Below the pieces are notes generated by a model. That model saw only the letters and a list, made by a program, of their open reading frames with translations. It made no database searches and was not told the DNA's origin. From the IMG/VR virus record IMGVR_UViG_3300020045_002718, positions 1-47,792 of that record: a DNA stretch of 47,792 nucleotides. One strand, given 5' to 3'. Position 1 is the stretch's first letter. Each line of letters starts with the position of its first letter. Source of the DNA: a virus. Its lineage: Duplodnaviria > Caudoviricetes. A program made the position numbers and the translations under genes. Of this stretch, positions 17,605 to 38,759 are shown one piece after another.

Positions 17605-17686
17605 TAGCCATACTAACACTAGCTAGTACTAGTTAGTATATACACTAGCTAGTCTATACTAGTACATACACAGGAGGGTAAGTAGA

Positions 17687-17899: not shown

Positions 17900-17909
17900 G
17901 AAAGGGGTG

Positions 17910-18035: not shown

Positions 18036-18046
18036 CATCTTGTAAG

Positions 18047-19066
18047 CTATTCATTACCGCCTGTAACCAATTTCCAGTGATTTTCTACCCCACCGTTTTT
18101 ATCTATAACTAATTGTCTCGATTTTATGAGTTCTCGTCTAATTCTATGCACCGTTGTGTCAGATAAACCAGTCTTTTCAACAACTTCATTAAAGGTTGTA
18201 AATCCTCCAGTTTCAGAACGCTCTTCCAAAAGTTTAAGAACAGCCTCGATAGCTTGAGCAGGTCGCCCTCTCTCAGCTACACGATTTGTTCTAGTCTCTG
18301 CGTCATAGGGAAGCCTAATGAACTTCTTTACATTACTACCCCGCATCTTCTTGTTATGTAACTCTACTCCAGAGGCTGTATTAGTATTAAACTTCTTTAG
18401 GATATAGGATGTATCTACATAGGCCTTAAGCCACTGACTGCCATAGTAAGGGTCGTCCTTAGTAATCTCATTACCCTCTCTATCTGTACTAGACTTACAA
18501 GTATGGTGAATTAACATCAATGCACAGTCAAACTCCTTACGCAGCATTTCACAGAATCTCAGTAATTTTGTGCATACATCACCTTCTTTAAGATCACCTG
18601 ATACAGCCATATAGATAGGATCTATTATTATAAGGTCAGGGTTCAGCTGTGTATCGTGTATACGTTTAATCATAGCACTAGTACTAGTGTCACTAGCACA
18701 GTTCAACATGGGGGGTATGTCCCAACATAAGTTACTATAGTCCATTTCAATGTTCTCATTCATAATCCGCATACGTTCAATGGTCTCGTAGTATGAGCCT
18801 TCCAATTGCATGTAGTATACCTTTTTAGGCACAGGCACATTTAGACAGCCAAAGACAGGTGCCCCCGTAGTAAGGGTCATTGCAACTTGTTGGGCAATAG
18901 CTGACTTGCCTATACCGGGATCGGCTGATATTAGTGTAATACTTTTCTCGTAGATAAATTCTTCAATTAGGGGGGTACGTACTATTACTAAATTCTCAAC
19001 ATCATCCTTTAAACTCTCACCAGTCTTAGGTACAAAATCAAACATACCAACCTCCATTACAGACAC
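18047..19066 (-). CDS. AAA_25 / RepA-like (SF4-related) helicase with C-terminal wHTH
   Basis: ADPGIGKS, YMQLE, IIIDP, LIHH; C-terminal TFNEVVEKTGLSDTTVHR. Confidence 0.85.
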   Translation of the reverse strand: MSVMEVGMFDFVPKTGESLKDDVENLVIVRTPLIEEFIYEKSITLISADPGIGKSAIAQQVAMTLTTGAPVFGCLNVPVPKKVYYMQLEGSYYETIERMRIMNENIEMDYSNLCWDIPPMLNCASDTSTSAMIKRIHDTQLNPDLIIIDPIYMAVSGDLKEGDVCTKLLRFCEMLRKEFDCALMLIHHTCKSSTDREGNEITKDDPYYGSQWLKAYVDTSYILKKFNTNTASGVELHNKKMRGSNVKKFIRLPYDAETRTNRVAERGRPAQAIEAVLKLLEERSETGGFTTFNEVVEKTGLSDTTVHRIRRELIKSRQLVIDKNGGVENHWKLVTGGNE

Positions 19067-22500: not shown

Positions 22501-24133
22501 CCTCTTCTACGGCGCCACGTCTCACAAAGCGCAGGTTCAGTTCACCCGGAAAGTATTCGCCCCAGCCTCCTTTGGGCGGCAGTGGCAGGGTGCCTAACTT
22601 GGCATGGACTTCACCATCTATAGTCTTATAACGTACACCCTTACCACGGTCTATAAAGTCACGTATGGATTGTAGAGAGCCTTTACGGGCAGGCATATCT
22701 GGATGAGAGGCTTCAGCTACACGAATGATGATACCAGCACCTTTGTTAGCTAGACGGACGTAGTCATCTGATGTGGTCTGACCTGTCTTGAACTTACCGG
22801 GTTTGGGTGGGGGTGTCTTGATAGGCTGAGGCTTTGCTTTAGCGATTGTACCCTCAAATTCCACAGGGACTTCTTTAAATCCAAGTTCCCTAAATGCTTG
22901 CAAACGATGATTGCCGTCTCTTAGTATAAGATTGTTACCCTCTTTAACGACCTTTAATGGTGGGATAGACTTACCTGCCTTAATCTTAGCTTTCCAGTAA
23001 TCGACTCTAGGCTTGTCGTGCACAAAGTTACGGGGAAAAATAGTACTGGTTTCATTCATAGCAACACCCGGCTTACTAGCAAACTTTGATACCGGTACTT
23101 GTTGAGGCTCCTTTACTCTCGGTAACTGAATACTCGCAGGAGCCACATCAGCCGGAAGACCTGCCTGAGCCGGAGCACCTACTGTCCTAGCAACCGGACC
23201 CTGCTCTGCTCTTGCCATCCATTGAGATAGTTCTGTTGCTAACCGTTTAGCCTCCGCACCAACTTCTGATCTAGCAAGTTGCTTAAGGCGTATCTGGGCA
23301 TATCTACTTAGTGCATTGTACTTAAATAACCTCTTAATAGGATTCTTCTCTGCAGTCATTATTTCTTCAGAAGTTGTGGGAAAGCCTGCCTTAGCATTGT
23401 CTCGTATGAACTTAACCACACTTTTGAGTGCAGCAATTTCTTGTTGACGAAGTAGCTTAAGACCAGCCTTTCCAATTGCTCTTGCGCCCCCCATTACAGC
23501 GGGAAACATAGCAGCATCTTTTATAGCGTTAAGACTCATAGCCTTAACAATATCTTCTAGCTGTCCTTCTGGAATGGTGTCAGAAACGCCGTAAATGGCC
23601 CCAGAAGCAGCTTCTTTCATGTAGGGAGCCATCCGTGCCAGTAATGTGCCTGTGGCTACCTCAGGGGCTGCAGCACTCACTAGTGTTGATATGGCTGCAA
23701 TTCGTCCTAGTTGACCCAGCATAACACCAGCATCTCTATCTAGCTTATCTGATGGATTAGTTACAGGTCCCGATAACTTACGGCCTGTACCAAATGGGAG
23801 CACTCCCTCAACAAATCCTTTACTGAGTTCTGCATATGAGTTAGGTCGTCCAGAAATAGGTCCAGCTACCGGCAATCCCGGCATCTGATTAGATATAGTA
23901 GAAAGCCGGTCAGCAAGTGGCTTAATGTTAATGGCGGGAGATGGTGTAATTGGTTCGGGGACTGCAACTGTAGATGTGCCCCCACCTTGAGAGAATGACG
24001 CTAACAAGTCATCGAATCTAGCAGGTTTCTTAGGCTGTGCTGTAGGTAGAGGTGTAGTACGTCTAGTCTTAGGAGGTTCTTCAGTCACTCCAGGTACTGC
24101 GTATCCTCGAAGCAACTCATCAAATGTTGCCAC
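19505..24133 (-). CDS. Large internal virion/ejection (polyvalent) protein with embedded ParB/Srx-like domain
   Basis: 1542 aa; last of three ejection-type genes; IPPLKV...LILRDGNHRLQAF; helical C-terminal region with TM-like segments. Confidence 0.7.
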   Translation of the reverse strand: MATFDELLRGYAVPGVTEEPPKTRRTTPLPTAQPKKPARFDDLLASFSQGGGTSTVAVPEPITPSPAINIKPLADRLSTISNQMPGLPVAGPISGRPNSYAELSKGFVEGVLPFGTGRKLSGPVTNPSDKLDRDAGVMLGQLGRIAAISTLVSAAAPEVATGTLLARMAPYMKEAASGAIYGVSDTIPEGQLEDIVKAMSLNAIKDAAMFPAVMGGARAIGKAGLKLLRQQEIAALKSVVKFIRDNAKAGFPTTSEEIMTAEKNPIKRLFKYNALSRYAQIRLKQLARSEVGAEAKRLATELSQWMARAEQGPVARTVGAPAQAGLPADVAPASIQLPRVKEPQQVPVSKFASKPGVAMNETSTIFPRNFVHDKPRVDYWKAKIKAGKSIPPLKVVKEGNNLILRDGNHRLQAFRELGFKEVPVEFEGTIAKAKPQPIKTPPPKPGKFKTGQTTSDDYVRLANKGAGIIIRVAEASHPDMPARKGSLQSIRDFIDRGKGVRYKTIDGEVHAKLGTLPLPPKGGWGEYFPGELNLRFVRRGAVEEAYVPANKLDGFGIRRVDRVAPPIRLAKNAISNNERVLVRHPDGHTEEGIVTAQQNIGGKKQVTVGLDSGKISTFDSKDVRGINDPRRTVPTETPATPTAPPESGPRTIRPPRELTKEELTQIKQLRDEAHEIGAKPAMSLVFQIQEIKSLNPADPRLPELQSQLKELQRQMQLRIKAIARIEARRTGESGAVRIGGGLEGGLSTAPITSPEGVRPRQFPNKGDLNEQMFREDRRRAITEANVTFDLSGKTRGRMSLKEIEALAKKGTLTQSQLATLKVGTAFPAEKIREAVNLMEEGIDTVMDYINIAITNPTSDIAKANMVTALTTFVDMATSTRAVSAEAGRALRTMQMANAMRTRTLPQAQALLDSINTENFIKTMHEFKAAVEANNIDGALKIAGELTHKPWWEKAVDFSAATLLLSGHTWIRNTTGNSLALAWRMGEGPAVVTADWIRATITNTPRTVYFRELAAENFALLDAIPEAFSTFVTILQKAYKGEIVELGQISDMYGISNLKRYVTPLADVKGVFKPGSRLQSPDFWTNLMTSPLQATDALFKVLHFRMSVSGQAYRMAIREGLEGQGFVDRVYALTQEPTKAMVEEATAKTLEHTFQSSLGELGKLLNRARFVKGFGPLVRWELPFFRGPVNLLKYSGQRSPLALTPGSKSFERIMSKAPAFERAAGLLPGDIERSQSEAIGKVIMGSLVSLTAGVLAYRGIITGAGSTKPSYNKLMQALGWQPNAVRLGDYSVSMMGLEPLSMNVALPATIVETYTQLTAPGVKASWEDYQTILTNSLQFGLSSTFFRQFKELIDFSSGKNKDFFPNMMATRIVTPPPVQYVNRLFFDNIIRKPEGFMETFKARTPLMSQTVAPRIDAAGNQVQVTEGPRWLPQRITKYKDIPALREMVRLGVTVPEQDEPMTVKVAGSKQGIPVQLTQSERSIIDSVSNKRMVIVINDLVLKPAYRVLPDDVKRRLLKALVKQSDDEVRQEFGKNIISESQRR

Positions 24134-26022: not shown

Positions 26023-26937
26023 CTATCCCAAACACAAAAATATCAAAGATACCGTGCCTGTTGGACTCCCAACTTTAGTCCATGTCAATGTAAACCCATC
26101 AGCATCCGCTGTTTTTAATATAGCATTTTGGTTTGTGCCTGCTCCTTGAGTGGCGTGAATTAAAAGCGCCGTCTCAACCTGCCAATTTGTGCCATCCTGT
26201 CCTATCGCAGTGCCAGTAGCGTGAGAGGTTTCCCAAAGTCCAAGCGATGCTCTAACTTGATTGTCTTGCGCTACCCATGCCACGATAACTTTTGGGGTAA
26301 ATCCAACTCCTGTATATGCAACATCCCCAGACGCTGCTGTAAAATCACGTGTCGATGTAATCAGTTTTGCTTGAGAAAATGAAAATGCCCACAAAGAATT
26401 CGCGCCAGCTCCAGCAGACTTAGCAAATTGTCCTGCAGTTCCCTCACTAGTCATTACGGGGATATACCCCGGTGTAGTACTAGCATCTGCCTGAAAGTTG
26501 TAAGTAACATCAGCAGTTACATTCTTTACAGCTAATGTAGTCTCAAAGGCATCTGCAGTAGAGCCTTCAAACACAAGTGGGCTAGCTCCTAACAGCACAG
26601 CAGAAGAGGCATCCACAGTAGCACCAGATACAAATGACGTAACACTAGCAGCACCAAAGCTGACAGTACTATTGAATGTAACGGCTCCGCTAAATACCTT
26701 CGCTCCACTCACAGTCTGTGAGTTAGTAAGACCTACAGGTCCCCCACCTGCATTGACTACAGTAGTAATATCCGTCTTCATCTGTTCTAACTGTGCAGCA
26801 GTCAATACTGACCCATCAGAGAATGTATATGACCAAGTTATGGTATCTGCATATACAGTACTAGTACTAGCTAGTACTAGTACTAACAGTGTAAGTATGT
26901 ATATACTAGATAGTACCTTACGTAATAGTGGCATCAT
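26023..26937 (-). CDS. Tail-fibre-like protein with N-terminal signal-peptide-like leader
   Basis: FSDGSVLTAAQL attachment-like motif, QTVSGAKVFS fibre motif, GVGFTPK tip-like motif; leader ends STVYA. Confidence 0.7.
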   Translation of the reverse strand: MMPLLRKVLSSIYILTLLVLVLASTSTVYADTITWSYTFSDGSVLTAAQLEQMKTDITTVVNAGGGPVGLTNSQTVSGAKVFSGAVTFNSTVSFGAASVTSFVSGATVDASSAVLLGASPLVFEGSTADAFETTLAVKNVTADVTYNFQADASTTPGYIPVMTSEGTAGQFAKSAGAGANSLWAFSFSQAKLITSTRDFTAASGDVAYTGVGFTPKVIVAWVAQDNQVRASLGLWETSHATGTAIGQDGTNWQVETALLIHATQGAGTNQNAILKTADADGFTLTWTKVGSPTGTVSLIFLCLG

Positions 26938-27175
26938 GTCTAAACCTCGCTATAGCGGTTGAACTTACCTTTGCAAATAACTCGTTGACCCCCGCAGGAC
27001 CAGTACCTGCACCAATAGCAAACTCACCCTCAAGCATCTGTGTTAGAGTAGGAGCTGTTGTGAATATCTTCGGCGCATAGAAACCTTTGTTTAGCAGGTC
27101 TGACACCTTATCTAGCCAGAGTTGTAACTCTGCGGGCATAGCACTAGGCAATACAGGTGGATCTATTTTCATCAA
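26918..27175 (-). CDS. Small tail protein
   Basis: Between the nozzle and fibre genes. Confidence 0.55.
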   Translation of the reverse strand: MMKIDPPVLPSAMPAELQLWLDKVSDLLNKGFYAPKIFTTAPTLTQMLEGEFAIGAGTGPAGVNELFAKVSSTAIARFRHDATIT

Positions 27176-28704
27176 TAGGCTCCTACAGGTTTACTAAGTA
27201 GTTCGTCTCCAAAGAGTTGCCAAGCAGGGTTAGTACTATTTTCCTGTAGACGTATCTGAATATACTTACCAAGACGGTCTATACCAATGGGTACGATAAC
27301 CGCCTCACTCCCACCAAGTACGCTGGTGCCTAATACAAATGTTGTACCTAACAAGTCACCCGTACCCCTAAGACTAGGTGAGTGTATGGTCTGTAAGCTA
27401 GTACTAAATTCCATACTAGCCAGCATATCTACAGTAAATAACCCCGTAGCCTTCATAGTCAGGTTAATCTGACGCCACTTCTGCATAGCTGCACGTTGCT
27501 GCTTCTCAGAGGGCTTACGGCTTAGTGTGTAGTGTGACGGTATAGTCGCTCCATCATCATCATTACCTGAATCTGCTCGCCAAGCATAACCTGTATAGCC
27601 TGCTTGGAGTAACCTGTTCTCTCCGGTAGATGTACGAGCTACAGTAGCTGCGTTACAAGCTACATTTGTAAATGGGAAGGCTGCTTTTGAGAATAGGTCA
27701 TAGACCATACAGTTCTGGTTAGAGGTAGCAGAGTCTTCTGCATAGTGCAGCATGTACCAATTACGTTCTGGCCAGTATACTGCTTGCACCTCATCAAATA
27801 GAGCCGCACTCATCCTGTCTACTGTGTGTGCAGAGGAGAAGGTTGATCTATGGTCAAACTTAAAGGACACACGGGCAGTTGTAGAGCCATCAAATATGTA
27901 TAGTTGTTTATTTGGTGTAAGGTACATAATGACATTACCTACACCTTGTATGTTAACGGGAATAACTGATCCGGGAGATAGTGTACCGGGACCGGCTACG
28001 AAGCGGGTGCCATAACGGGGATTGCCTCCTAAGTCATCTATGCGGTACCAACCTTGTACACCAAAGCCAAAGAGTCTGCCTCGCAATGACTTGAATCCTA
28101 ATATAGTGTCTGTACTGCTTAGCTGAATCTTATCGTTAGTGGTGTCAAAAGAGAGTGTGTTTGTGGGACTGAAGTATGTCACACCCTCAAATCCAGCTAG
28201 ACCACATACCCAGAGTCTACCGGTAACATCATCCGCATAACCATACTTAAAGGCTGCAGCACCACTAATTGTAGCGGTTGCCCCAGCAGACCCGTCCCAA
28301 GACTGTGGATTGACAGAACCGTCATGCGCGAAGATGACTGCCTTACTTAAGTAACTGACAATCTCACAGCGAGAGTTGGGAAGGCTAAGGGTGTCTGTAA
28401 CTGCATCCCATGTACCATCAAGGCCGTCCATTTTGTAGAACCCATCATCCCATACAGCTACTTGCTTAAGGTTCGTAGTACTAAGAGCTAGCTCACTAAG
28501 CGCATTAGCCTTAGCAGTAGCACCTACAGCAGAGGTATTTAACTTAGCCTTTCCTTTACGTTTCTCTATGGAGGCAAATACATTGGAGTGTACATTGGCG
28601 CAGTCAGGAGTCTCATTCTGTGTGTGATTAAGTGGATTCTCTGCGGCATTAAGCCCACCTGAATAATCTGTCTGAACCTCAGCGGTAACCTGTTTAACTG
28701 GCAT
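27172..28704 (-). CDS. Tail nozzle / DNA-stabilisation protein (P22 gp10 / T7 gp12-like)
   Basis: Probable start MPVKQ at 28704; DYSGGLN...NV...IEKRKG N-terminus, beta-propeller-like body, GKYIQIRL C-terminus. Confidence 0.75.
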   Translation of the reverse strand: MPVKQVTAEVQTDYSGGLNAAENPLNHTQNETPDCANVHSNVFASIEKRKGKAKLNTSAVGATAKANALSELALSTTNLKQVAVWDDGFYKMDGLDGTWDAVTDTLSLPNSRCEIVSYLSKAVIFAHDGSVNPQSWDGSAGATATISGAAAFKYGYADDVTGRLWVCGLAGFEGVTYFSPTNTLSFDTTNDKIQLSSTDTILGFKSLRGRLFGFGVQGWYRIDDLGGNPRYGTRFVAGPGTLSPGSVIPVNIQGVGNVIMYLTPNKQLYIFDGSTTARVSFKFDHRSTFSSAHTVDRMSAALFDEVQAVYWPERNWYMLHYAEDSATSNQNCMVYDLFSKAAFPFTNVACNAATVARTSTGENRLLQAGYTGYAWRADSGNDDDGATIPSHYTLSRKPSEKQQRAAMQKWRQINLTMKATGLFTVDMLASMEFSTSLQTIHSPSLRGTGDLLGTTFVLGTSVLGGSEAVIVPIGIDRLGKYIQIRLQENSTNPAWQLFGDELLSKPVGAY

Positions 28705-28705
28705 A

Positions 28706-29830
28706 TTATCGTCTAACCCCTGTACTTTGATAGACTGTTCGCATACGCTGTTTACCGTAATTAACACGATTCTCTGCACGAGCAAGGCTGCCCAGCACAC
28801 CTTCAGGAATACCAGATAGCTTTAACCATCTACTGTAACCTGCCTCATCATCTTGATGAGAAGCGGCAAGAGCAGCAATTCCATAGATGATAGCGTTCTG
28901 GTAGACTTCAGGAATCTTAGTAAACACCTGACTAGCTGTATAAGCTGCACCAGTTACGGTACTTCCCTTATAGACACTGGCTAAGACAATACCTGTGTCG
29001 CTGCCAACAGAACTGATCTTGAACCAACGGGAGTCGTTGTCTATACGAAAGTAGTCACCCGCCACTACATTGGTAGACCATACAGTACCTGTACCGGTAA
29101 CTGTAGTACTGTTATTAGTAACAGCTACTGTACCAGTTACATACTCTGTAAGTTCTGTAAGTGCTGGTATGTACTCATAGTATATAAGGGTATCTGCATC
29201 AAAGGGGCCATCAAATTGGATTTGATAGTTGTCACTTGCGTCCTTAGACGGACTTAGGCGGAAGAATCTGGGTTGGTTGGAGTTAGTAATCTGAGCTTCA
29301 AGAAATAGCCCATCTTCTTTGAAGTCAATATATTGTACTGTTCCACTATCCCGGTACCATATACGGGGGTTCGTTGTGAATCGGTCAAAGTCACTGGCTA
29401 GACTCATTAAGTCTTGGTAGAGGATATAAGAGTTACCACTAGTAAGGGTGCCTTTGTAAGTACGTTTCAGAGTAAGTTGAGTAGCACTATCCCTAGTAAG
29501 TACTTCATAGATGTTGTCATCCCCAGATATCTTTAGCTTCCAACCTACGCCAGCAGCGGTAGGAAATGTGGTGCTAGCACCCGTAACTGTAGCACTAGCA
29601 TCAGCCACTGTAACAGTACCTGTACTATAGGATGAGTTAACTAGAATAGGTGTACTGACCTCCTTACGAAGGAAGTCAAATTCAAGGACTTGGGGAATAG
29701 CTTGAGTGTATATAATGTTACAGAGGTTCTTGTAGAGCCGTTCTGTGTCAGAATCAACTCGTCTGTCTCCCACAATTAACTTCGCGCGCTCCCACGCTTC
29801 TGTAAAGGGAATGATAATATTATTTGGCAT
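28706..29830 (-). CDS. Head-tail adaptor with two inserted beta-rich repeats
   Basis: FDFLRKE, LASDFDRF, IPEVYQNAIIYG adaptor-like motifs; directly upstream of the nozzle gene. Confidence 0.7.
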   Translation of the reverse strand: MPNNIIIPFTEAWERAKLIVGDRRVDSDTERLYKNLCNIIYTQAIPQVLEFDFLRKEVSTPILVNSSYSTGTVTVADASATVTGASTTFPTAAGVGWKLKISGDDNIYEVLTRDSATQLTLKRTYKGTLTSGNSYILYQDLMSLASDFDRFTTNPRIWYRDSGTVQYIDFKEDGLFLEAQITNSNQPRFFRLSPSKDASDNYQIQFDGPFDADTLIYYEYIPALTELTEYVTGTVAVTNNSTTVTGTGTVWSTNVVAGDYFRIDNDSRWFKISSVGSDTGIVLASVYKGSTVTGAAYTASQVFTKIPEVYQNAIIYGIAALAASHQDDEAGYSRWLKLSGIPEGVLGSLARAENRVNYGKQRMRTVYQSTGVRR

Positions 29831-29832
29831 AG

Positions 29833-30258
29833 TTACCTCAGTAAGTTAGCAAGTAGTTCGTTGGGGTCAAAGCCTCTGTCTTGAAGGTACTTTAACTTTC
29901 CCTTCGCGCCTGTTTGGTCAAACTTAGCAATTGCCTGAGCTACCGTAGGATTCCTAGGAAGACCGTAATTACCGGGTACGTCGGCATACTTTTTGAACTG
30001 CTCCTTAACTGCTAAAGGTACCTGTTTAGGATCCTCTAAGTAGATAAAGTTCTGCCGGTCAGCGGGCTTTACAATACGTCTATTAACCCGGAAGCCATGA
30101 ATAGTATCCCAATTTGCCATAGCATCATTTGTGATACGAAATGGTGTCTGACCCGAAAGGAGACCCTCATGCTGCAAAATAGCACTAACAAAGTCATCGG
30201 CTGAGCCATTGTTTTGATAGAATGACTCATCCACAGCATTTAATTTTTGTGTAGCCAT
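29833..30258 (-). CDS. Possible lysozyme-like protein
   Basis: Probable start MATQKL; AILQHEG and PTVAQAIAKF resemble lysozyme-fold phage proteins; function tentative. Confidence 0.4.
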   Translation of the reverse strand: MATQKLNAVDESFYQNNGSADDFVSAILQHEGLLSGQTPFRITNDAMANWDTIHGFRVNRRIVKPADRQNFIYLEDPKQVPLAVKEQFKKYADVPGNYGLPRNPTVAQAIAKFDQTGAKGKLKYLQDRGFDPNELLANLLR

Positions 30259-30259
30259 A

Positions 30260-30550
30260 TTAGACCAAATACACCAACACGTTAGTAACGTCAGTAAGAG
30301 TAGTAGCCCAGATGCCATCAAACTCTTGACCGTCAAATGGAATGTATACACTTTGCTCACTGTCTGTTAACTGGTTAGTATATCGAAAGTTCTCAACTGC
30401 CCCAGCTACACCATCACGGTTATTGTTAAGTACAACTAAGAAGGTATCTGCACTAGGATTGATAAGGATACCCCGGACCTTAACCTTACGCGTGATGACC
30501 GATCCCGTTGAGTCAATAACGATTGGATTTGCGTTTAAATTATTCGCCAT
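30260..30550 (-). CDS. Small beta-rich putative virion protein
   Basis: AGGAG RBS; IPFDGQEFDGIW jelly-roll-like pattern. Confidence 0.6.
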   Translation of the reverse strand: MANNLNANPIVIDSTGSVITRKVKVRGILINPSADTFLVVLNNNRDGVAGAVENFRYTNQLTDSEQSVYIPFDGQEFDGIWATTLTDVTNVLVYLV

Positions 30551-30565
30551 TTAAGTTCTCCTAAG

Positions 30566-30841
30566 TTACTTACGCTTACGTTCCATTAAGTGAATGATTA
30601 AGTAATAAGTGAAGCTCATTAAGATGATCGTAAATACCCATGCTTGCCACTCATTGTCAACTGCCCACGCAGAGAAGTGCTGACTAATTGTATGCCCTGT
30701 TTGAAGCTTACTGAATAACTCCATCCCCCCAAGAGATATACCAATTAGGGCTAGGAGTCCCGCAAAGTGGTATTGCTCGCATAGAGTAAGCCACACAGTA
30801 CCTACTACAAGTATGATTACTAAAGCTTGCCAATCAAACAT
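30566..30841 (-). CDS. Membrane protein (about 3 TM)
   Basis: Hydrophobic segments and basic C-terminus. Confidence 0.65.
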   Translation of the reverse strand: MFDWQALVIILVVGTVWLTLCEQYHFAGLLALIGISLGGMELFSKLQTGHTISQHFSAWAVDNEWQAWVFTIILMSFTYYLIIHLMERKRK

Positions 30842-30946
30842 TTACTTTCTCCCCGATTCCCAACCTTTTTCGTAGATACAGATACACAGACCAAGTATAA
30901 CTAGTAACCAAAATAATATGCCCCCAAGCTTTAGGAACAGTTCCAT
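30842..30946 (-). CDS. Single-TM peptide (34 aa, not in track)
   Basis: MELFLKLGGILFWLLVILGLCICIYEKGWESGRK*; abuts both neighbours. Confidence 0.55.
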   Translation of the reverse strand: MELFLKLGGILFWLLVILGLCICIYEKGWESGRK

Positions 30947-31068
30947 CTACCACTCCCACTTCCATTTAATTCCGATCTTCATGTCTTCACCAAAGTCTTC
31001 ATCGTAAATACCACCGCCTACTACCTCTAGATGACTCCCAAACTTAACGGTGTTGTAGGTTAAGGAGC

Positions 31069-31416
31069 TTAGCCGTTTTTTAAGGGCTTCAGGGCATTGA
31101 CAAAATCGACGTATGCTGCACGGGCAAGAGTCTCTGCCTTGTCTAAAGGGATACGCCCATTGGAGAGCTTGTTAATCATCATGGCCGCCTCGATAAGTTT
31201 CTCCCGGCCTTTCTGCGTGTCAGGACCGAACTTATCTTCAGCAAACTTAACAGCAATACCAGCATAGTAATCATCACGCTGTGTCCTAGAGTTCTTAACA
31301 AGGTTAGTGATTAGGTCACCAGATTTCTTGCCTAGCCAGCCCAATACAGCCGCAAGACCCGCTATAACGATAGGGGCCACTTGTGTAACAATCATGTCAA
31401 CTATCTGCTGTTTCAT
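31069..31416 (-). CDS. Holin, LL-H-like; probable -1 frameshift extension to 30947
   Basis: N-terminal TM, AVKFAE...KGREKL..A, ARAAY; ends in TTA AAA AAC GGC TAA. Confidence 0.7.
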   Translation of the reverse strand: MKQQIVDMIVTQVAPIVIAGLAAVLGWLGKKSGDLITNLVKNSRTQRDDYYAGIAVKFAEDKFGPDTQKGREKLIEAAMMINKLSNGRIPLDKAETLARAAYVDFVNALKPLKNG

Positions 31417-31425
31417 ACGTCCCCC

Positions 31426-31914
31426 CTATACAATGAATGGTGTGAATATTCTAGAACTAAATAGTACTAACCCTTCTTCAACAGGAGCCTTCTTAAATGG
31501 GTTCCATACACCAAAGGCTATTGCTGTCAGTACACTTACGGCTAGCTGTACAGCATAGATTAGCCAGTTTCCTGAGATAAATACTAGATATAGTGGTGTC
31601 AGGGAGAGTCGCAGTGCCCATACTAGACGACGTACTATCTTCTGCCAGAGGATGTCTGTACCACCGTATCCTAAGTGACTAAGCCCCTTCTCTAGGGGTA
31701 CTGCTGCCACATACAACCACACAAACGTACTAGTCCATATACTATACAGTAATACTAGTATAGTATAACTAATAGGGCCAATGAGACGACGCCACACACG
31801 AGGAGACATACCCCAGTACTTCTTGGATCGCCCTCCACGTGACCAACAAAAGGCGTACCAGACTGTTAGTAATAAACCTACTAGTAACTGATATACTTGA
31901 ATGTCCTCGTTCAT
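31426..31914 (-). CDS. Multi-pass membrane protein
   Basis: Several hydrophobic helices. Confidence 0.65.
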   Translation of the reverse strand: MNEDIQVYQLLVGLLLTVWYAFCWSRGGRSKKYWGMSPRVWRRLIGPISYTILVLLYSIWTSTFVWLYVAAVPLEKGLSHLGYGGTDILWQKIVRRLVWALRLSLTPLYLVFISGNWLIYAVQLAVSVLTAIAFGVWNPFKKAPVEEGLVLFSSRIFTPFIV

Positions 31915-31929
31915 TATTTATACCTACAG

Positions 31930-32154
31930 TTATCCTTTTGCATCCGGAATCATATCCCGTACCTCATCAAGACGCTTCCAGATAGCAGAAATCTGTGTAT
32001 CGCGCTTTTCGAGTTCTCTATCCATACGCATTAAGCCTACGTAAAGATTGTCAAGACGCGCAGCAACTTTAGATGCCCACCATACAGTTGCCCCTGCGTG
32101 TCCTAATATAGCAACTATAACTGCTATGCCTTGAACTGTTAAGTGCAAATCCAT
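31930..32154 (-). CDS. TM plus coiled-coil protein (holin/hemolysin-like)
   Basis: N-terminal TM, VWWASKV, coiled coil. Confidence 0.6.
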   Translation of the reverse strand: MDLHLTVQGIAVIVAILGHAGATVWWASKVAARLDNLYVGLMRMDRELEKRDTQISAIWKRLDEVRDMIPDAKG

Positions 32155-32426
32155 TATTTTTTCCTTTTAACAATCTCAACTAAACTCTCAGAGATTGCGT
32201 TCTGTTGCATATTAAAAGCCTGCTGGCTGACGTTTAGGGCTTTCTGTTCGTAAACGATCTTACTTAAGTCGTCCACCTTTTCTTCCGTCTTTTCGACCTT
32301 CTTGTCAACTATTTCAGTCTTTGACGCCGTGACAGCCCACGCGGAAGCAAGCCCTACGACAGAAAGGGCAACGCCGAAAGCAACGCTGATCGTTTTCCAG
32401 TTCAGTTTACTTTTAGATTTTGCCAT
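32154..32426 (-). CDS. TM plus coiled-coil protein
   Basis: N-terminal TM, heptad pattern. Confidence 0.6.
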   Translation of the reverse strand: MAKSKSKLNWKTISVAFGVALSVVGLASAWAVTASKTEIVDKKVEKTEEKVDDLSKIVYEQKALNVSQQAFNMQQNAISESLVEIVKRKK

Positions 32427-32613
32427 TCTTGCTGTCCATGCCGTTTAATTTCTGCTCGATACCAGATTGACGTTTTGCAAGTTCTTGTAGAACACCACTT
32501 TCTTGAGCATTTTTAAGAACTGTCTGCTGAACTATCTGCCACGCATTGAAACCGGTAACGAAAATAAAAAGGATTAAGGCGATAACAACCAAGAAAGATT
32601 TCAATTTTTTCAT
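32413..32613 (-). CDS. TM plus coiled-coil protein
   Basis: MKKLKSFLVVIALILFIFVTGF. Confidence 0.6.
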   Translation of the reverse strand: MKKLKSFLVVIALILFIFVTGFNAWQIVQQTVLKNAQESGVLQELAKRQSGIEQKLNGMDSKNGKI

Positions 32614-32622
32614 TACATTCTC

Positions 32623-32949
32623 CTACGATTGACAACCGCCGATTGCTATCATGGCGGTTTTTATTCTATTTCGTTTCGTAATGTACAGAGCCGATTGAGC
32701 GTCATAATACGCCTGAGCAGAAATCGTATCCGCTGTTAAGCTACCTTGTCTCAAATCCGCTTTAACCCTTCTCAGAAAATCATTGAAGTCGTTTGACGCG
32801 CTAAACAATTCAGCCCAACTTGCGCTCATGTTAGAAATTGTCGCCTGCTGTTCAGCTACTGTGCAAGTTCCGTTATTTTGAGCGCACGTTGCGAAAGCGT
32901 TGCTCGAAAATGATAAGGTAATGAGTAAAGTCAATAATAGTTTCTTCAT
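32623..32949 (-). CDS. Secreted-type helical protein downstream of the fibre gene
   Basis: AAGGAG RBS then MKKLLLTLLITLSFSSNAFA leader. Confidence 0.65.
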   Translation of the reverse strand: MKKLLLTLLITLSFSSNAFATCAQNNGTCTVAEQQATISNMSASWAELFSASNDFNDFLRRVKADLRQGSLTADTISAQAYYDAQSALYITKRNRIKTAMIAIGGCQS

Positions 32950-32960
32950 GGTTTCTCCTT

Positions 32961-34793
32961 TTAAGATGTGCCTGCACAAAGACAAAGGTCAGCTGTTGCA
33001 TCAGAGCATGAAACTAAATTAGTCACAGCTACTCCCGTTGCGTTTGCAATACCAACGGCACAAGCACTTGTGCATCCGGTAGTGCAAGCCTGATTATCCG
33101 TCTGGTCAACAATCACCCACCCTAAGTCATTTCCAGAGCTTCTGAATGTTCCGGTAGTTGTGAGAGCAGAAGCCGTAATACTAATTTGATTGTCCGTAGC
33201 CCAACCAATAGAGGTGTCGTTTGCACCGTTGTTGAAAGTCAGCGTGTCTGCTGTGAGAACAGCCTCGATAGCCGTTGCTATTTTTAAATTGGTAGTTGTG
33301 GTAGCGTCAATGTCAAGCGTGCTTGCGGCAGAAGAATTTATCTTCTGACCAGAAGCCCTGAATTGAACGCCATTTGTCGTTGTAAAAGTATTAAGAGCAT
33401 TCTTTGCTACTACATTCGTTGCAGAAGGATAAGGGGTTGTCCCGTCATGAAAGGTGGTTGCATAGACAGTTCCCATTCTCTCAGTTGCACTTGCTAAGTT
33501 ATAGCTACCATCACCACCAGAAGGAACCACTACATGGCCGCCCAACACAACGCCTGAGCCGAAGTTGATTTGGTCGAACGACAATATCAGGTCAACTCCA
33601 GGGGATGTTTCCTCTAAGTGCATTTCTGAAGTTGCCGCTTCGTGGTAGAAATCTACCTCTTGACCTGTTCCAAAATACAGATGGATGTCTGATAGTATGT
33701 TCACATAAGCAGAGTGTGAATTGATTCCGCTCCATGTGTTGCTACCGTTCAAGAGTGGAATTGCTGCACCTGAAGTCCCTGTGACAATTTCAGTTGGCCC
33801 AATACAATCAGAGCAAGTCAGGTCAGAGGAATTTGCAGACCGTAAATTCGCAACCTCAGTTGTAGACGCAACTGTAAACGGGGCTGTTCCGGTTGCTACT
33901 GTGGATTGATATGTTCTTCCTGAAACATCACCTTGATAATTAAGCGAGTACACACTTGATTGGTTTAAGAATACTTCATCCACTTTTCCGGTAAACGACA
34001 CCCCAGCGTTATTAGTTCCGTTGTCAAATGGGTCTGCGGTTGTAACCGAATCTGGGTCAGCGTTTAACCTCACTTCGTGCAAAGTTGTAGACCCTGTGTA
34101 GTTTACAAACTCTTTCGTTATCATCGAAGCCGCGTCTACATCGAATACGCGCCATACGTTCGATGCACCGTGAAGTCCAACGGCTCCGGCAGAATGACTG
34201 GCGGTTGTTTCGTAATGCTCGTGGTCAACGGTAGCATAATCTGAATTTATAACTTTCCAATGTAGGTTGTTCGTAAGCCATGCGACTTTATCATCATTCA
34301 TGGTTTGAAGAATCATACTGTAGTTCACCGCAGTAAGGGAGTCGGAAGCTGTCTGGTTAATCCAAGCTGATTCAGGCGTGCTCCCACCGGCCGCGGTCAC
34401 GACATCAGATTGATTGATAAATCCTTTCAGCCACACATCATCAAATTCAAATGTTTGAAGCCCTAAGTCAGTAGTTCCGGCGACAAGGGGAGCAAAATAG
34501 GTAGACGAAATAGCGTAGGTATTTACGCCAGAATTTGTGATACCGATAATACCGGAACCAAATTTATACATTCCTGTTGTTGTGTCTGATGTGAATGACC
34601 ATGAGGGAAGTAACGCCGTGCCGTCTAGGAGTTTTAAAACTCCGGTCATTGGGGAATTTGAGGCGTCGAGTTTGAGGAAGGTTCCGCCGAGAGCTGAAGT
34701 TAATGATGCTGTAGATGGCTGAGGCTTACCCTCAATGCGAGCTGCTATACTAAAAATCCCTATTAGTATAAGTAATATAATTACTTTCCGCAT
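32961..34793 (-). CDS. Long tail-fibre/receptor-binding-like protein with hydrophobic leader and Cys-rich tip
   Basis: DGTALLPSWSFTSDTTTGMY and STVATGTAPFTVASTT fibre motifs; C-terminus ACTTGCTSAC...SCSDATADLCLC. Confidence 0.7.
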   Translation of the reverse strand: MRKVIILLILIGIFSIAARIEGKPQPSTASLTSALGGTFLKLDASNSPMTGVLKLLDGTALLPSWSFTSDTTTGMYKFGSGIIGITNSGVNTYAISSTYFAPLVAGTTDLGLQTFEFDDVWLKGFINQSDVVTAAGGSTPESAWINQTASDSLTAVNYSMILQTMNDDKVAWLTNNLHWKVINSDYATVDHEHYETTASHSAGAVGLHGASNVWRVFDVDAASMITKEFVNYTGSTTLHEVRLNADPDSVTTADPFDNGTNNAGVSFTGKVDEVFLNQSSVYSLNYQGDVSGRTYQSTVATGTAPFTVASTTEVANLRSANSSDLTCSDCIGPTEIVTGTSGAAIPLLNGSNTWSGINSHSAYVNILSDIHLYFGTGQEVDFYHEAATSEMHLEETSPGVDLILSFDQINFGSGVVLGGHVVVPSGGDGSYNLASATERMGTVYATTFHDGTTPYPSATNVVAKNALNTFTTTNGVQFRASGQKINSSAASTLDIDATTTTNLKIATAIEAVLTADTLTFNNGANDTSIGWATDNQISITASALTTTGTFRSSGNDLGWVIVDQTDNQACTTGCTSACAVGIANATGVAVTNLVSCSDATADLCLCAGTS

Positions 34794-35173
34794 ATAAATG
34801 TGACTCCCTCACCATTGACAGAGGAGTCTAAATAGACATCCTGCGCATCATTGAGATCAAGACATATTTCTTCACTGGCCCCTAAGCGATAGCTATTACT
34901 ATCTACAGTAGAGTTACCTACATAGATGATTCCGGTATTGGTGGACTTTGCTTTGATGCAGCAAGAGGATACAGGAGTTGAGGAGGCTACTAACTGAACA
35001 CGCGTACCGGCAGTAGTAACTGTCTTGTTACTAGACGTAACTATTCTAGTAAGGGGAATAAGATTGACGTCTTGAGTAGCCGCAAACGAGTTAGTTAGGC
35101 TTACTGTCATTAGGATAGAGAATACGCTCAAAGCGAATATTCTCTTTAGTGACAGCTTTCTTGACTTCTGCAT
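34781..35173 (-). CDS. Small beta-rich virion-type protein with signal-peptide-like leader
   Basis: AAGGAG 7 nt before ATG 35173; IKAKSTNTGIIYVG motif. Confidence 0.65.
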   Translation of the reverse strand: MQKSRKLSLKRIFALSVFSILMTVSLTNSFAATQDVNLIPLTRIVTSSNKTVTTAGTRVQLVASSTPVSSCCIKAKSTNTGIIYVGNSTVDSNSYRLGASEEICLDLNDAQDVYLDSSVNGEGVTFICGK

Positions 35174-35534
35174 TGAGATGCTCCTTAAATTTGTCATCGA
35201 GTAACTTCATAGCAAAATCGAACCCTTTAGAGAAACCTGCTTCATAACCTGAGCGATGGATACTGTCAGGAAGGCCGGTACGTACCTTAGCTATCTCGGT
35301 ATTTAAGCGATCCTGCTCATAAGATAGATCCTGTCTACGACATTGCAGAGATTCGTGGAGGCCGTCAAGTTCCCTACGAAGGGTCTCATTACGTCTAATA
35401 AGAGGCTCCAACTCTACATTGATAGCAACTTTCTTAGTCTCTGCAGCTAAGATAGCAGCTTGTTCAATCTCATGTTGACGTTTAGCTACTTCGGACTCTA
35501 CACGTTTGGTGACTAGACTTTGGAGCCATCCCAT
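35091..35534 (-). CDS. Coiled-coil hypothetical protein
   Basis: Heptad pattern, GYEAGFSKG. Confidence 0.55.
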   Translation of the reverse strand: MGWLQSLVTKRVESEVAKRQHEIEQAAILAAETKKVAINVELEPLIRRNETLRRELDGLHESLQCRRQDLSYEQDRLNTEIAKVRTGLPDSIHRSGYEAGFSKGFDFAMKLLDDKFKEHLNAEVKKAVTKENIRFERILYPNDSKPN

Positions 35535-35536
35535 AG

Positions 35537-35833
35537 CTATTCCCTCACACCTAAGTAACCAGTAAATGCCTCGTTAGTTGCTACGCTAGTAAGGGCTACA
35601 GTTAAGGTACCTCGTGTAGGAATCTCTACCTCAACATCAAGGGTACCTTCTACAGAGAGATTGCTGTATAAGATGTCTTGGTCAGCATCTTTAATGGTGA
35701 TGTTGTAGGTGTTTGTGGCAGTAGCAGGCTTAACGTAGATATGGTGAATCACTATGCCACTGAACTTAGACGTAGTTATAGTGAGGGTGTTGCTAGCTAC
35801 TGTACCAGATAGACGTTCCTTATGAATAAGCAT
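35537..35833 (-). CDS. Small beta-rich putative virion protein
   Basis: Thr/Val-rich beta pattern. Confidence 0.6.
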   Translation of the reverse strand: MLIHKERLSGTVASNTLTITTSKFSGIVIHHIYVKPATATNTYNITIKDADQDILYSNLSVEGTLDVEVEIPTRGTLTVALTSVATNEAFTGYLGVRE

Positions 35834-35850
35834 GAAGCTGACCTATTCAA

Positions 35851-36132
35851 TTACACTGGCCGTAAGGCTTCAATACCACCCGGCTTGCCGTTGAGGGACT
35901 CATACTCAACAACGAGGCAGCCAACACGAGCTTCCCAATCACGATGCTTTCTAAGGACACCAAGAGAGTTCTGCTTCATCTCACTAACAGAGGGCATACC
36001 TACACGAATAAGATCAACAAGTTCAGCTTTACGTTTCTCAACTGCAACATCCTGTGCTTGTCTGACGTGCTCAGTATCAACCTTAACTGACTTAGGCTTA
36101 CTAACTAACTTAACAGCTTTCTTAGTTGCCAT
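35851..36132 (-). CDS. Paralog 3 of tandem GMP-x3-EM family
   Basis: Start MATKK after AGGAG; GMPSVSEM...RKHRDWE...IEALR. Confidence 0.65.
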   Translation of the reverse strand: MATKKAVKLVSKPKSVKVDTEHVRQAQDVAVEKRKAELVDLIRVGMPSVSEMKQNSLGVLRKHRDWEARVGCLVVEYESLNGKPGGIEALRPV

Positions 36133-36142
36133 TGTTATTCTC

Positions 36143-36529
36143 CTAATACCATTTAGCAAGCTTGTCAGCTTCACCTTGTTTACGTAGGTGCTCAACACGG
36201 CCTGCGTTAGGGTTATCTGGTTCAAGGCGTCGCTTTAAGTTTTTGAGTTCCTCGATACGGGTAGCATTTGCTTTCTCCCAACCGAGATGTTTCTGAATGT
36301 TTTCTTGAGTGGGTTTCCACATCTCTGTGTGTGTGGGCATACCATTAGCAATCTCAGTTTCAAGGTCACGTATGCGGCTTGCCATACGGTCCTTATCCTG
36401 AGGAGCTATAGGCTCAGACTTCCACTTCTCACGTAGACGGTCCATATCTGACTTAGCATCAGAGTCATCACGAAGCATATTACGTTCATCGTAATCAATG
36501 GAGCCACGGGTACGTTTGTCTGTGTTCAT
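36143..36529 (-). CDS. Paralog 2 of tandem GMP-x3-EM family
   Basis: GMPTHTEM...QKHLGWE...VEHLR. Confidence 0.7.
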   Translation of the reverse strand: MNTDKRTRGSIDYDERNMLRDDSDAKSDMDRLREKWKSEPIAPQDKDRMASRIRDLETEIANGMPTHTEMWKPTQENIQKHLGWEKANATRIEELKNLKRRLEPDNPNAGRVEHLRKQGEADKLAKWY

Positions 36530-36789
36530 AATCTGAGTGCCTCCACACTAGGTAGATCTGGAAGGAGCTTACGAATTTCACAGTAGCGTTCAGTATCACG
36601 ACGGGTAGACCGCTCCCAATCAATCTGGCGTTGGATGGCACGAGGCTCACCCTTTTTCATTTCGAGGTGGGTCGGCATACCTGTTGTGATACGTTTCTGA
36701 AGCTCATTTGCTTCTTGGAGAAGTTCTTCTGTAGTTGGTTCAATAACTACAGGTTCACTTACTTCTGAGTTAATCGCTTCCTCACTCAT
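36526..36789 (-). CDS. Paralog 1 of tandem GMP-x3-EM family
   Basis: GMPTHLEM...QRQIDWE...VEALR; AGGAGG RBS. Confidence 0.7.
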   Translation of the reverse strand: MSEEAINSEVSEPVVIEPTTEELLQEANELQKRITTGMPTHLEMKKGEPRAIQRQIDWERSTRRDTERYCEIRKLLPDLPSVEALRL

Positions 36790-36810
36790 TACCCCTCCTT
36801 GAACAACATA

Positions 36811-36836
36811 TCCTCAAGGGCACAAGGCCCCTGAGG
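36811..36836 (-). terminator. Hairpin after the capsid-adjacent gene
   Basis: CCTCAAGGGC-ACAAG-GCCCCTGAGG imperfect stem; weak U tail. Confidence 0.4.
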
Positions 36837-36853
36837 TTGATGTTGTGTGTAAA

Positions 36854-37843
36854 TTACGTTGTCTGTACAGCTGTTCTCGATTTCTCGTACCAAGTCGTAC
36901 CATTTGAAATGAACGAAACAACATACACGTCTGAGGCTAAGTTAGCCATTGTCAGAGTGCCTGTTGAGATCATGTTCGTTCCAAATGTCATAACTTCGTC
37001 ACCAGAACCTGCCGCGTCAGTGGTGAAGATAAAGATCATCTCATCACCGGCTGAGCCTGCACCAGAGGCATTGAAAGTAGCATCCGTGTTATCCGCAGGT
37101 TGGTAGGTAAAGATTTGACGGCCCGCGGAGACAGTTAATGTAGGTGTTGCTCCGGGGGTTAATGCTGATGTTGCCTCACTTGTGTGGACAGTACCAAGAG
37201 CTGAGGTTAACACACCTGTAGATGCTAAGGTTAGCTTTGTTACATAGGTTCCGGGTGTGGTAGAGTCATTTCCAATCAGAAGTGACGCCGCACTGGAATC
37301 ATTGAACAATTGCCAACTATCAGAAGCATCCGCCTGAGCATCACCAACAAGACGAAGATACGCGTCAGAAGCAGAAGTGCCCGCTCCATAGATTGTGAGA
37401 TCGCCGTCAGTGGAGCCTGTAACAGTAGTAACACCCGTATCTGTCATAGAGATAATGGGTGTCGTACCGAGAGCAGTACCGAGGCCGATGATTAGGTCAT
37501 CTGCAGAATCGTCAAGGCCGATATGGAAGTCTTGAGCGTTTCCGTCGAAGTTGACTTGAGCATCTTCCTCACCAGCGTCACCTACAGTTACTGAGGGGGT
37601 AGTACCTGCCACAATGACATCCCCCGTAATTGTCTGAGCACCGGTGGTGGCAACTACGCCGCCTGCCGTTACACTATATACTTCTGTGCCTGAGGTGTTG
37701 TTAATTTTAAACACCTTAGTGGATGACGTTGTCGCTCCATCACTGTTTGAGTCAATCTGCACGCCGCCAAAGTTTGTGTTGGCAGCGTACAGAGGTGACA
37801 CAGACAGGAGGGCAACAAGAATTGCAATACTTAATTTACGCAT
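36854..37843 (-). CDS. Head-fibre/decoration-like protein with Sec-type signal peptide
   Basis: Directly after the major capsid gene; MRKLSIAILVALLSVSPLYA; Thr/Gly/Asp-rich; C-terminal VSFISNGTTWYEKSR fibre-tip-like motif. Confidence 0.7.
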   Translation of the reverse strand: MRKLSIAILVALLSVSPLYAANTNFGGVQIDSNSDGATTSSTKVFKINNTSGTEVYSVTAGGVVATTGAQTITGDVIVAGTTPSVTVGDAGEEDAQVNFDGNAQDFHIGLDDSADDLIIGLGTALGTTPIISMTDTGVTTVTGSTDGDLTIYGAGTSASDAYLRLVGDAQADASDSWQLFNDSSAASLLIGNDSTTPGTYVTKLTLASTGVLTSALGTVHTSEATSALTPGATPTLTVSAGRQIFTYQPADNTDATFNASGAGSAGDEMIFIFTTDAAGSGDEVMTFGTNMISTGTLTMANLASDVYVVSFISNGTTWYEKSRTAVQTT

Positions 37844-37865: not shown

Positions 37866-38759
37866 TTAGCTAACTAGAGATCCATGAACCCAGCGCCAGT
37901 CAGAGTAACCTGCACCAAAGCGCATGTAGGCACTGAATTTGGCTTGATAGGTGTCAAAGTCTTTATCCCGGCCGAACTCAAGTGGAATACGATCAAACCA
38001 CATAAGGAACATGTCCTTAAGGTTGGAGTCAATCATAAACCAGTTGTTCGAGTCGGTTAGGTAATCCCATACGGCAAGTTTGTATTTGCCATAGTGGAAG
38101 TTTGCGTTGTTGTTAGCGGTTTCCACTTTTCCGCGGGATGCGATAATCTCCCAGCCTGTCTGCTCTAAGCCGCGAGGGACAAGGAGCAAGTCAGGAATCA
38201 CAGTGATCTTCTCACCTTCAGAGTCACGGAAATCAGCCATCGCGGTACGGGCTGCCTCAATCGCTGTTGCAGAGAGGGCAGATGTGCCACGGTTAGACTG
38301 AGTTGCGACACCTGGGGTGATAGAGGTGTGAGCTGTAGAACAGAGAGACAATGCGTCACCGGAAATAGAGGTATCCGTAAAGGCATTGTTAAAGATTGTT
38401 GCGCCGCGTTTTTCACGGGTACGCCGGGCTGCCACGGCTAGACCTTGAGGCTTCTTATTCATGATGCTGTACAAGTCATCATCCCAAAGCTTACGTTGGA
38501 CTTTAAAGCCCTTAGCGAACTCCGTGAAGCGGTAGGTAACATCGTATTGCTGATAGACTTCATCATAACCGATGGTACCGGTAAATTCTCCGAAATCAGA
38601 GAATCCGCCGACAGCAGAGTCCTTTTCCTCAGGCTTATCCGAGGTCATCATATTGAACAGATCAGGTAACATCGAAGGGATGATGTTGAACTGGTCTGAG
38701 AAAATCTTTCTAAATCCCGGTGTAAGTAAATCACCGAAGGCTTCTGCAATTGCTGGCAT
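37866..38759 (-). CDS. Major capsid protein (HK97 fold, Mu gpT-like)
   Basis: FAKGFKVQRKLWDDD, DALSLCSTAH, PDLLLVP..LE, RFGAGYSDWR. Confidence 0.9.
   Translation of the reverse strand: MPAIAEAFGDLLTPGFRKIFSDQFNIIPSMLPDLFNMMTSDKPEEKDSAVGGFSDFGEFTGTIGYDEVYQQYDVTYRFTEFAKGFKVQRKLWDDDLYSIMNKKPQGLAVAARRTREKRGATIFNNAFTDTSISGDALSLCSTAHTSITPGVATQSNRGTSALSATAIEAARTAMADFRDSEGEKITVIPDLLLVPRGLEQTGWEIIASRGKVETANNNANFHYGKYKLAVWDYLTDSNNWFMIDSNLKDMFLMWFDRIPLEFGRDKDFDTYQAKFSAYMRFGAGYSDWRWVHGSLVS

Follow-up and report, generated by a model that had tools for sequence, protein, structure and literature searches.

Tailed phages are taught to complete their particles in the cytoplasm. The question of whether some of them might finish their fibres elsewhere is raised by the virus record IMGVR_UViG_3300020045_002718 (Duplodnaviria; Caudoviricetes), the 47,792 bases of which constitute, as the entire record, the window analyzed here. 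On its minus strand, this window encodes a terminase, a portal, a major capsid protein, a holin-like gene, adaptor-type and nozzle-type proteins and an internal virion protein, and this gene layout is podovirus-type (order: portal-scaffold-capsid...adaptor-nozzle-fibre-ejection proteins). For five proteins of this region (329, 130, 610, 108 and 304 amino acids, aa) the initial annotation had claimed signal peptides of the general secretory (Sec) type, and all five open reading frames and leader sequences were found where it had placed them (Table 1). The parts of these proteins are those of ordinary podovirus fibres, and the secretion leaders on them are what is new. We consider it probable that the five proteins are exported by the Sec pathway, fold outside the cytoplasm and dock on fibreless particles at lysis.

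Leaders were called by a crude rule of our own, which scores the n-, h- and c-regions (n/h/c) of a signal peptide, and not by SignalP. When Met-prefixed internal segments were subjected to this rule, it gave 5/845 and 3/322 false positives (about 1%). Among the 74 genes of the window, seven were flagged. These were the five leader genes and two additional ones (32413..32613 and 32154..32426), which encode membrane-anchored coiled-coil-like products and were absent from the original list. None of the 34 early genes was flagged. All five leaders show the basic n-region, the hydrophobic h-region and the small residues at -3/-1 that characterize Sec/signal peptidase I substrates, and the hydropathy of their best 11-residue stretch varied between 2.5 and 3.7. 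Capsid, portal, adaptor and nozzle had been described as free of leaders, which was borne out by our analysis, and the same holds true for the scaffold, the protein in the cement slot and the ejection-type proteins. For the nozzle, all 26 matches listed (the window's own counted) were leaderless. The leaders on the five proteins are real and not a product of chance.

Leaders of this kind might be artifacts if the true starts were located downstream. It was found that every leader start is preceded by a Shine-Dalgarno (SD)-like site (GGAGG, GGAG or GAGG) and that in all five genes none of the in-frame ATG, GTG or TTG codons between the leader and 25 codons beyond the cleavage site has a comparable one. 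In the 610-aa gene, codons 2-43 do not include any of these triplets. Similarly, nine genes of two related viral contigs (L001, L013) were examined, and none of them had an in-frame start with SD backing close to the cleavage site. Dual starts were rejected since there is no SD-backed internal start. Homologs have their starts at the corresponding place, and in them the n/h/c character and the Ala at -1 are kept although the leader sequences vary. Because the leaders diverge in sequence and yet retain this character and an invariant Ala -1, Sec export of the five proteins is well supported at the sequence level.

What would export release? In the mature parts of the five proteins, we did not find a second 19-residue hydrophobic segment (maximum 1.44), and neither a lipobox nor a twin-Arg motif was found in their leaders, so that cleavage would set free soluble proteins. 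The n-regions are basic and the mature starts are neutral to acidic, which, according to the positive-inside rule, predicts an N-in/C-out orientation. Display on the infected cell, which had been offered as alternative function, is weakened by these data, since the mature proteins would not be retained there by a lipobox or a membrane anchor.

The 304-aa tail fibre provides information on the position of the leader relative to the fibre. Among the best 120 of 354 matches, which were listed, 11 (self included) have its N-terminal region in common, and a leader was flagged in 11/11 (10/10 without self); for homologs that match the tip only, this was the case in 2/109. When the 11 proteins, which had been chosen because they share this N-terminal match, were aligned, 29 of the 30 invariant columns fell into residues 29-83, and the leaders had nothing in common in sequence except for Ala -1. 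When 16 N-termini of leaderless fibres, selected by eye, were alone used to construct a profile, it matched aa 30-61 of the 304-aa protein from profile position 2 onwards with 18.4 bits, and 200 shuffles yielded a maximum of 4.6 bits with the same profile. Thus, the leader takes the place that the start Met occupies in ordinary fibres. From its position, the segment comprising aa 31-83 is predicted to dock on the tail. Atlas matches of this protein to T4 gp9/10-like clusters (0.84, template modelling score 0.40) are leads only.

For the 610-aa fibre-like protein, the six-Cys C-terminal cluster that had been reported for it was confirmed (Cys570, 574, 578, 596, 604, 606). This tip is present in 25 proteins with unrelated N-terminal halves. 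Leaders were found on 24 of them, and in the remaining one the start appears to have been called too late. One tip homolog (P0170) lacks exactly the third and the fourth of the six cysteines, which suggests a Cys578-Cys596 bond. Upstream of the tip, the number of cysteines is even in 14/16 proteins (binomial p about 0.002, calculated for related rows that are not independent), and for comparison even counts were obtained for 54/103 leaderless fibres. Taken together, predicted cysteine pairs in the six-Cys tip family co-occur with the export signal. AlphaFold modeling of the mature 610-aa protein without alignment did not yield a usable structure (predicted local distance difference test, pLDDT, 33.6). 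With 24 of the 25 homologs aligned, the tip was modeled as a small beta domain (pLDDT 77), and Foldseek searches with this model against PDB and BFVD gave no match at E<=0.001. VIA structural candidates for the tip (MGAT5 luminal domain, resistin, PCSK9) were weak rows with a best Z of 3.2, too low to use. The tip was not found in the 401 genomes searched in the Omnitrophota phylum. Its exact motif had five matches in 185,579 species genomes, and none of the four inspected (L126 left out) was a tip domain.

The gene of the 329-aa protein directly follows that of the major capsid protein. In its family, 59 of 150 representatives were flagged for a leader, and among relatives with the same tip the corresponding ratio was 15/19 (self included); of the four unflagged ones, two are apparently mis-started and two are leaderless. 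The repeat module is common in fibre-like proteins of viral contigs, where 2/53 distinct N-termini were flagged. Within 40 aa after the cleavage site, the sequence [TS][NH]F, which we take to be a candidate capsid-anchor motif, occurs in 8 of the 59 leader-bearing relatives compared with 2.0 expected (p 0.0005). A lipobox was detected in four of these 59 (P0182, P0201, P0249, P0318), and some relatives have anchor-like N-termini. In P0182, P0201 and P0318, a Met is located just ahead of the conserved mature motif and this arrangement may allow anchored and free forms. As to the two smaller proteins, the 130-aa protein has a leaderless homolog in contig L009 (34% over 64 aa), and the 108-aa protein, which gave only a weak family match (phrog_15143), is possibly a co-exported fibre chaperone or cap, judging from its slot.

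Table 1. Positions of the leader-bearing proteins, of their parts and of selected neighbours in the 47,792-base window
Feature	Position	Strand	Remarks
610-aa fibre-like protein	32961..34793	-	17-18-aa leader, Thr/Ser/Gly-rich shaft, 8 Cys (CxxC + six-Cys tip)
Six-Cys C-terminal tip (~aa 559-610)	32964..33119	-	Predicted small beta domain; putative Cys578-Cys596 pair
304-aa tail fibre, post-nozzle slot before ejection proteins	26023..26937	-	C-terminal tip (aa 190-304) common to mostly leaderless proteins
Leader of 304-aa fibre, 30 aa, predicted cleavage VYA|D	26848..26937	-	Ala -1 invariant in 11/11 aligned
Mature 304-aa fibre, conserved N-terminal segment (aa 31-83), predicted virion anchor	26689..26847	-	aa 30-61 match leaderless fibre N-termini
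329-aa head-fibre-slot protein	36854..37843	-	Repeat module (~aa 55-151), C-terminal tip (aa 205-329), no Cys
Sec-type leader of 329-aa protein, 20 aa, predicted cleavage LYA|A	37784..37843	-	Same-slot leader in L001
130-aa protein	34781..35173	-	31-aa leader and small beta-rich domain with 4 Cys
108-aa protein	32623..32949	-	20-aa leader and 88-aa helical-looking mature part with 3 Cys
Major capsid protein, without leader	37866..38759	-	Context
Nozzle-type tail protein, without leader	27172..28704	-	Context
Head-tail adaptor-type protein, two inserted fibre-like beta domains, without leader	28706..29830	-	SU10 adaptor PF24175 match below cut-off
Holin-like protein	31069..31416	-	phrog_608, E 9e-5; within small-membrane-protein run 30566-32613

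The leader trait is also found in other viral genomes. L001, the capsid of which is 81% identical, has the same layout with five leader genes within 3.7 kb after the capsid gene, and in capsid relatives at 48-58% the post-capsid genes are mostly leaderless. In the 40-kb viral contig L013 (capsid 46%), leaders are present on three fibre-type genes and, in addition, on adaptor and nozzle. Here, aa 38-223 of the adaptor match positions 9-199 of the phrog_399 profile, which places profile position 1 at the predicted cleavage site. The two L013 genes are located at 14928-18610 and the nozzle contains 14 Cys. A fibre-only pattern was observed for L052 and for L107/L116 (a phage-like contig in an Omnitrophota metagenome-assembled genome, MAG), and L001 and L116 have small leader-bearing genes among the fibre genes. 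Among the phage-like contigs inspected from genomes of the Omnitrophota phylum, leader-bearing structural-slot genes occur in L107/L116 and L121 and there are none in L113, L114, L115 and L120. L121 (4927-5697) and L021 (9999-10793) carry leader-bearing post-capsid or tail-end genes in long-tail-type gene sets, and thus the trait is not limited to podoviruses. In L107 (2643-4847), the proteins in the scaffold and capsid slots both start with a short leader ending LFNxSG, a possible different processing motif. On a capsid tree the trait is patchy (about four changes), and its clustering was no stronger than in shuffles (74/500). This tree, which does not include L017, L018 and L021, is weakly resolved, and its L004 label is questionable. 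Since the tree is weak and clustering does not exceed that of shuffles, origins of the trait cannot be counted.

Sequence searches did not identify a close cultured relative of the window phage, and scans of viral_contigs with nozzle, anchor, portal, adaptor and tip pattern gave no relatives. When the alignments of fibre and nozzle were used to search PDB sequences, nothing below E 0.04 was obtained. The capsid search matched a TA06 MAG contig (45%) and, weakly, Robertmurraya, and the nozzle search one Omnitrophota MAG contig at 26%. Of the 401 Omnitrophota-phylum genomes, three were matched by the nozzle, three by the capsid, two by the anchor and none by the six-Cys tip. The capsid and nozzle matches in MAGs are binned phage-like contigs and do not provide a host assignment.

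How do the window proteins compare with known systems? Podovirus tail fibres of the T7 gp17/SU10-type architecture sit on adaptor/nozzle tails. The window resembles T7/SU10-type podoviruses in gene order, and its N-terminal segment, shaft modules and tips are shared with leaderless fibre-like proteins. Unlike T7/SU10-type fibres, those of the window start with conserved Sec-type leaders and are therefore predicted to fold outside the cytoplasm; one family carries, in addition, the six-Cys tip with no fold match in PDB or BFVD at the above threshold. Cleavable signal peptides on virion proteins are well known from pIII and pVIII of the filamentous phage Ff, and the domains of pIII are disulfide-bonded. 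The putative virion proteins of the window are similar in having predicted cleavable signal peptides. However, Ff coat proteins are membrane-anchored and are assembled during non-lytic extrusion of single-stranded DNA, whereas the window phage has, besides a holin-like gene, a terminase, a portal and an HK97-type capsid, and a membrane anchor is lacking in its mature proteins. Tailed phages do export non-virion proteins by host Sec (T4 antiholin RI, T4 Spackle, signal-arrest-release/Sec endolysins). These are lysis or exclusion proteins, unlike the window fibres with their virion-type N-terminus.

The long tail fibres of T4 are put together on a separate branch and attached last to fibreless particles (PMC3004832), which is a precedent for late attachment. 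In contrast to what we predict for the window fibres, they are not exported; they employ the cytoplasmic chaperones gp57A and gp38, and their separation is one of pathway and not of membrane. The MAT adhesins of Bdellovibrio (PMC10769870) also have a signal peptide followed by phage-like fibre modules. They are encoded by cellular genes, with a conserved domain of about 130 aa after the signal peptide and an S74 chaperone in 13/21. The window genes differ in that they belong to a phage morphogenesis module and gave no S74 Pfam match.

The cultured podovirus Tunturi 1 (PP887698; host Tunturiibacter psychrotolerans; PMC11924767) provides a further case: leaders were called on 5 of its 25 examined genes (gp12, gp13, gp14, gp16, gp17). 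As in the window, they are located on proteins of the structural region (gp14 is annotated as tail spike) and the adaptor-, nozzle- and capsid-type proteins are leaderless. The leader-bearing proteins contain 20, 10, 20, 1 and 32 Cys, respectively, that is, 10-32 and always an even number in four of them. In its Cys-rich tailspikes, Tunturi 1 differs from the window phage. For Tunturi 3, none of the 23 examined genes had a leader. Tunturi 1 did not appear in sequence searches with the window proteins, and kinship by sequence was not seen. The main text of the Tunturi 1 paper does not contain the term signal peptide (PMC11924767). In open PMC/bioRxiv full text, we did not find any paper that describes tailed-phage fibres with signal peptides, although a note to this effect might be contained in annotation tables of supplements or in subscription journals. 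A Klebsiella screen reported dsbA as a weak hit for seven phages, which was interpreted as a receptor effect.

If these observations are combined, the following sequence of events appears plausible. Assembly of heads, portal, adaptor and nozzle would take place in the cytoplasm, as it ordinarily does. The five proteins would be virion fibres and their helpers and would cross the host inner membrane via their Sec leaders. Beyond this membrane, the leaders would be cleaved off and the proteins would then fold, the 610-aa family probably with disulfides. When lysis breaches the membrane and the compartments mix, the fibres would dock on fibreless particles. Leaders, ribosome-binding sites, conservation, the place of a leader in front of the conserved N-terminal segment of a fibre and the lack of leaders on head, adaptor and nozzle are direct observations; we infer from them translocation, cleavage by signal peptidase, disulfide formation, docking and its timing by holin-triggered lysis. 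Depending on the host envelope, the compartment that we call periplasm may correspond to the space outside the cell. Disulfide folding would be the likely driver of export for Cys-rich fibres. Candidate drivers for the Cys-poor ones are evasion of cytoplasmic defences that target fibres, or assembly of a branched fibre network in one compartment. Both beta domains inserted in the adaptor (28706-29830, minus strand) match tail-fibre PHROGs and are possible docking sites for branched fibres. Glycosylation was considered as export driver and rejected, since no excess of N-x-S/T, D/E-x-N-x-S/T or D-S/T-x motifs was found in proteins of the window or of L013.

The initial annotation had proposed that appendages may be exported, folded oxidatively and added to the particles outside the cytoplasm or at lysis. 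This proposal is supported in part. Export is well supported, and oxidative folding is compatible with the 610-aa family, but not with the 329-aa (no Cys) and the 304-aa protein (one Cys). Addition to particles is supported indirectly by the fibre segment behind the leader of the 304-aa protein, by its post-nozzle slot and by the lack of any leaderless long fibre in the module: all three multi-module fibre-like genes of the morphogenesis module have leaders, and between the terminase and the ejection genes no long fibre without leader was found.

Several observations weigh against the proposed route. Next to the Cys-poor fibres just mentioned, Cys parity in the 329-aa family is weak (even in 29/49 with leader vs 26/67 without). 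Leaderless proteins likewise contain tips or modules of the 304- and 329-aa fibres, and export is thus not needed for those folds. A capsid-anchor profile from 14 leaderless post-capsid N-termini did not match the mature start of the 329-aa protein. The selection of the 11 aligned fibres and of the 16 profile sequences, as described above, must also be considered. Glycosylation motifs showed no excess (23 N-x-S/T sites compared with 18.7 expected, p 0.14, and 8 D-S/T-x sites compared with 10.3), and a 58-aa coiled-coil gene after the 304-aa fibre, which encodes a possible chaperone, has no leader.

Among the alternatives, it is conceivable but unlikely that the exported proteins do not belong to the virion and instead function at the infected cell or in its surroundings, where they might mask receptors, serve as decoys, degrade the matrix or mediate adhesion. 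Cellular phage-like fibres with signal peptides do exist, as all 21 Bdellovibrio MAT adhesins indicate (PMC10769870), a viral NosD-like beta-helix protein with signal peptide has been proposed to function in host adhesion (PMC13452462), and the lipobox-bearing or anchor-like relatives of the 329-aa protein would fit this function. On the other hand, the five window proteins lack lipobox, second membrane segment and twin-Arg motif, and the 304-aa protein retains a fibre N-terminal segment and the post-nozzle slot. A cell-surface function of all of them would leave the phage without any long fibre and would not account for the leaders on adaptor and nozzle of L013. Moreover, the six-Cys tip was not found in the searched Omnitrophota-phylum genomes or among the inspected motif matches in species genomes (4/5).

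Alternatively, tail and fibres might form at the inner membrane's outer face and be joined to the heads across or at it, so that particles would mature in or leave through the envelope and would not meet the fibres only after membrane rupture. We judge this scenario improbable. In its favor, adaptor and nozzle of L013, which are needed to close the filled head, have leaders and the nozzle contains 14 Cys; in the window, neither a recognised endolysin family nor a lipoprotein spanin was found. However, leaders are lacking on the window nozzle and all its listed matches as well as on adaptor and ejection proteins. The window has a holin-like gene, and in a Pfam scan of 57 proteins neither an extrusion ATPase nor a secretin was recognised.

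It is rather improbable that the leaders are used inefficiently as signals, or remain uncleaved and tether the proteins to the membrane, and that the functional fibres are cytoplasmic, for instance as isoforms from an internal start. The Met ahead of the mature motif in the lipobox-bearing relatives P0182, P0201 and P0318 and the presence of the same domains in leaderless proteins would be compatible with it. This explanation conflicts with the absence of SD-backed starts near the cleavage site in 5/5 window and 9/9 L001/L013 genes, with the start-free codons 2-43 of the 610-aa gene, with the predicted N-in/C-out orientation, with the invariant Ala -1 and with a cysteine pairing that follows the leader. 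Finally, that the leaders are functionless relics of fibre genes captured from host adhesins is very improbable: the patchy distribution on the capsid tree would fit, but five separate genes carry leaders fused to phage-type N-terminal segments, leaders are kept in distant homologs despite unrelated leader sequences, and they also occur on a phage adaptor and nozzle (L013).

When the relatives are included, Sec export with late docking may be one stage of a more general strategy. We tentatively suggest that in many tailed phages, which form a broad group with few cultured members, virion assembly is divided between the two sides of the host inner membrane, with the window phage as fibre-only stage. 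On this reading, which is about as likely to fail as to hold, if not slightly more so, heads would be filled in the cytoplasm, and the fibres, in some lineages together with the adaptor and nozzle that seal the head, would be secreted, cleaved, oxidatively folded and joined only at or across the membrane. If true, exported fibres would add a trans-membrane step to tailed-phage morphogenesis, disulfide chemistry would become available to receptor-binding proteins, and the host would contribute Sec, signal peptidase and Dsb proteins as assembly factors. Sealing of the tail outside the cytoplasm, which the L013 data suggest, would represent a new category. Exported fibres would also be out of reach of defences in the cytoplasm, for example ubiquitin-like conjugation to tail fibres (10.1101/2023.09.04.556158). 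Phage genes with leaders readily receive an annotation as host-manipulating or auxiliary genes, though they possibly encode virion parts. Tunturi 1 is a cultured test case, in which the idea of exported fibres is directly testable.

The remaining parts of the window show a number of additional features. The early genes on the plus strand encode a DNA polymerase A with UDG domain, a PD-(D/E)XK nuclease, an AAA ATPase and a ubiquitin-like cassette. This cassette (3175-6198, plus strand) consists of a SAMP2-like modifier ending GG, a 342-aa protein, a Prok-JAB protease and a ThiF/E1 enzyme. The 342-aa protein gave no Pfam match and may be E2-like, as suggested by its position. The holin-like gene lies in a run of small membrane proteins (30566-32613, minus strand; 66, 90, 74, 162, 115 and 91 aa), two of which have leader-like anchors and coiled coils. 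The terminal 103 bases (47690-47792) are a perfect inverted copy of the terminase gene start (46101-46203), which is likely an assembly fold-back and possibly marks a genome end. The 1542-aa ejection-type protein (19505-24133, minus strand) has a ParB-like domain at aa 374-424. At 35851-36789 (minus strand), three small tandem paralog-like genes (87, 128 and about 93 aa) have a GMP(T/S)..EM motif in common and are conserved in L001.

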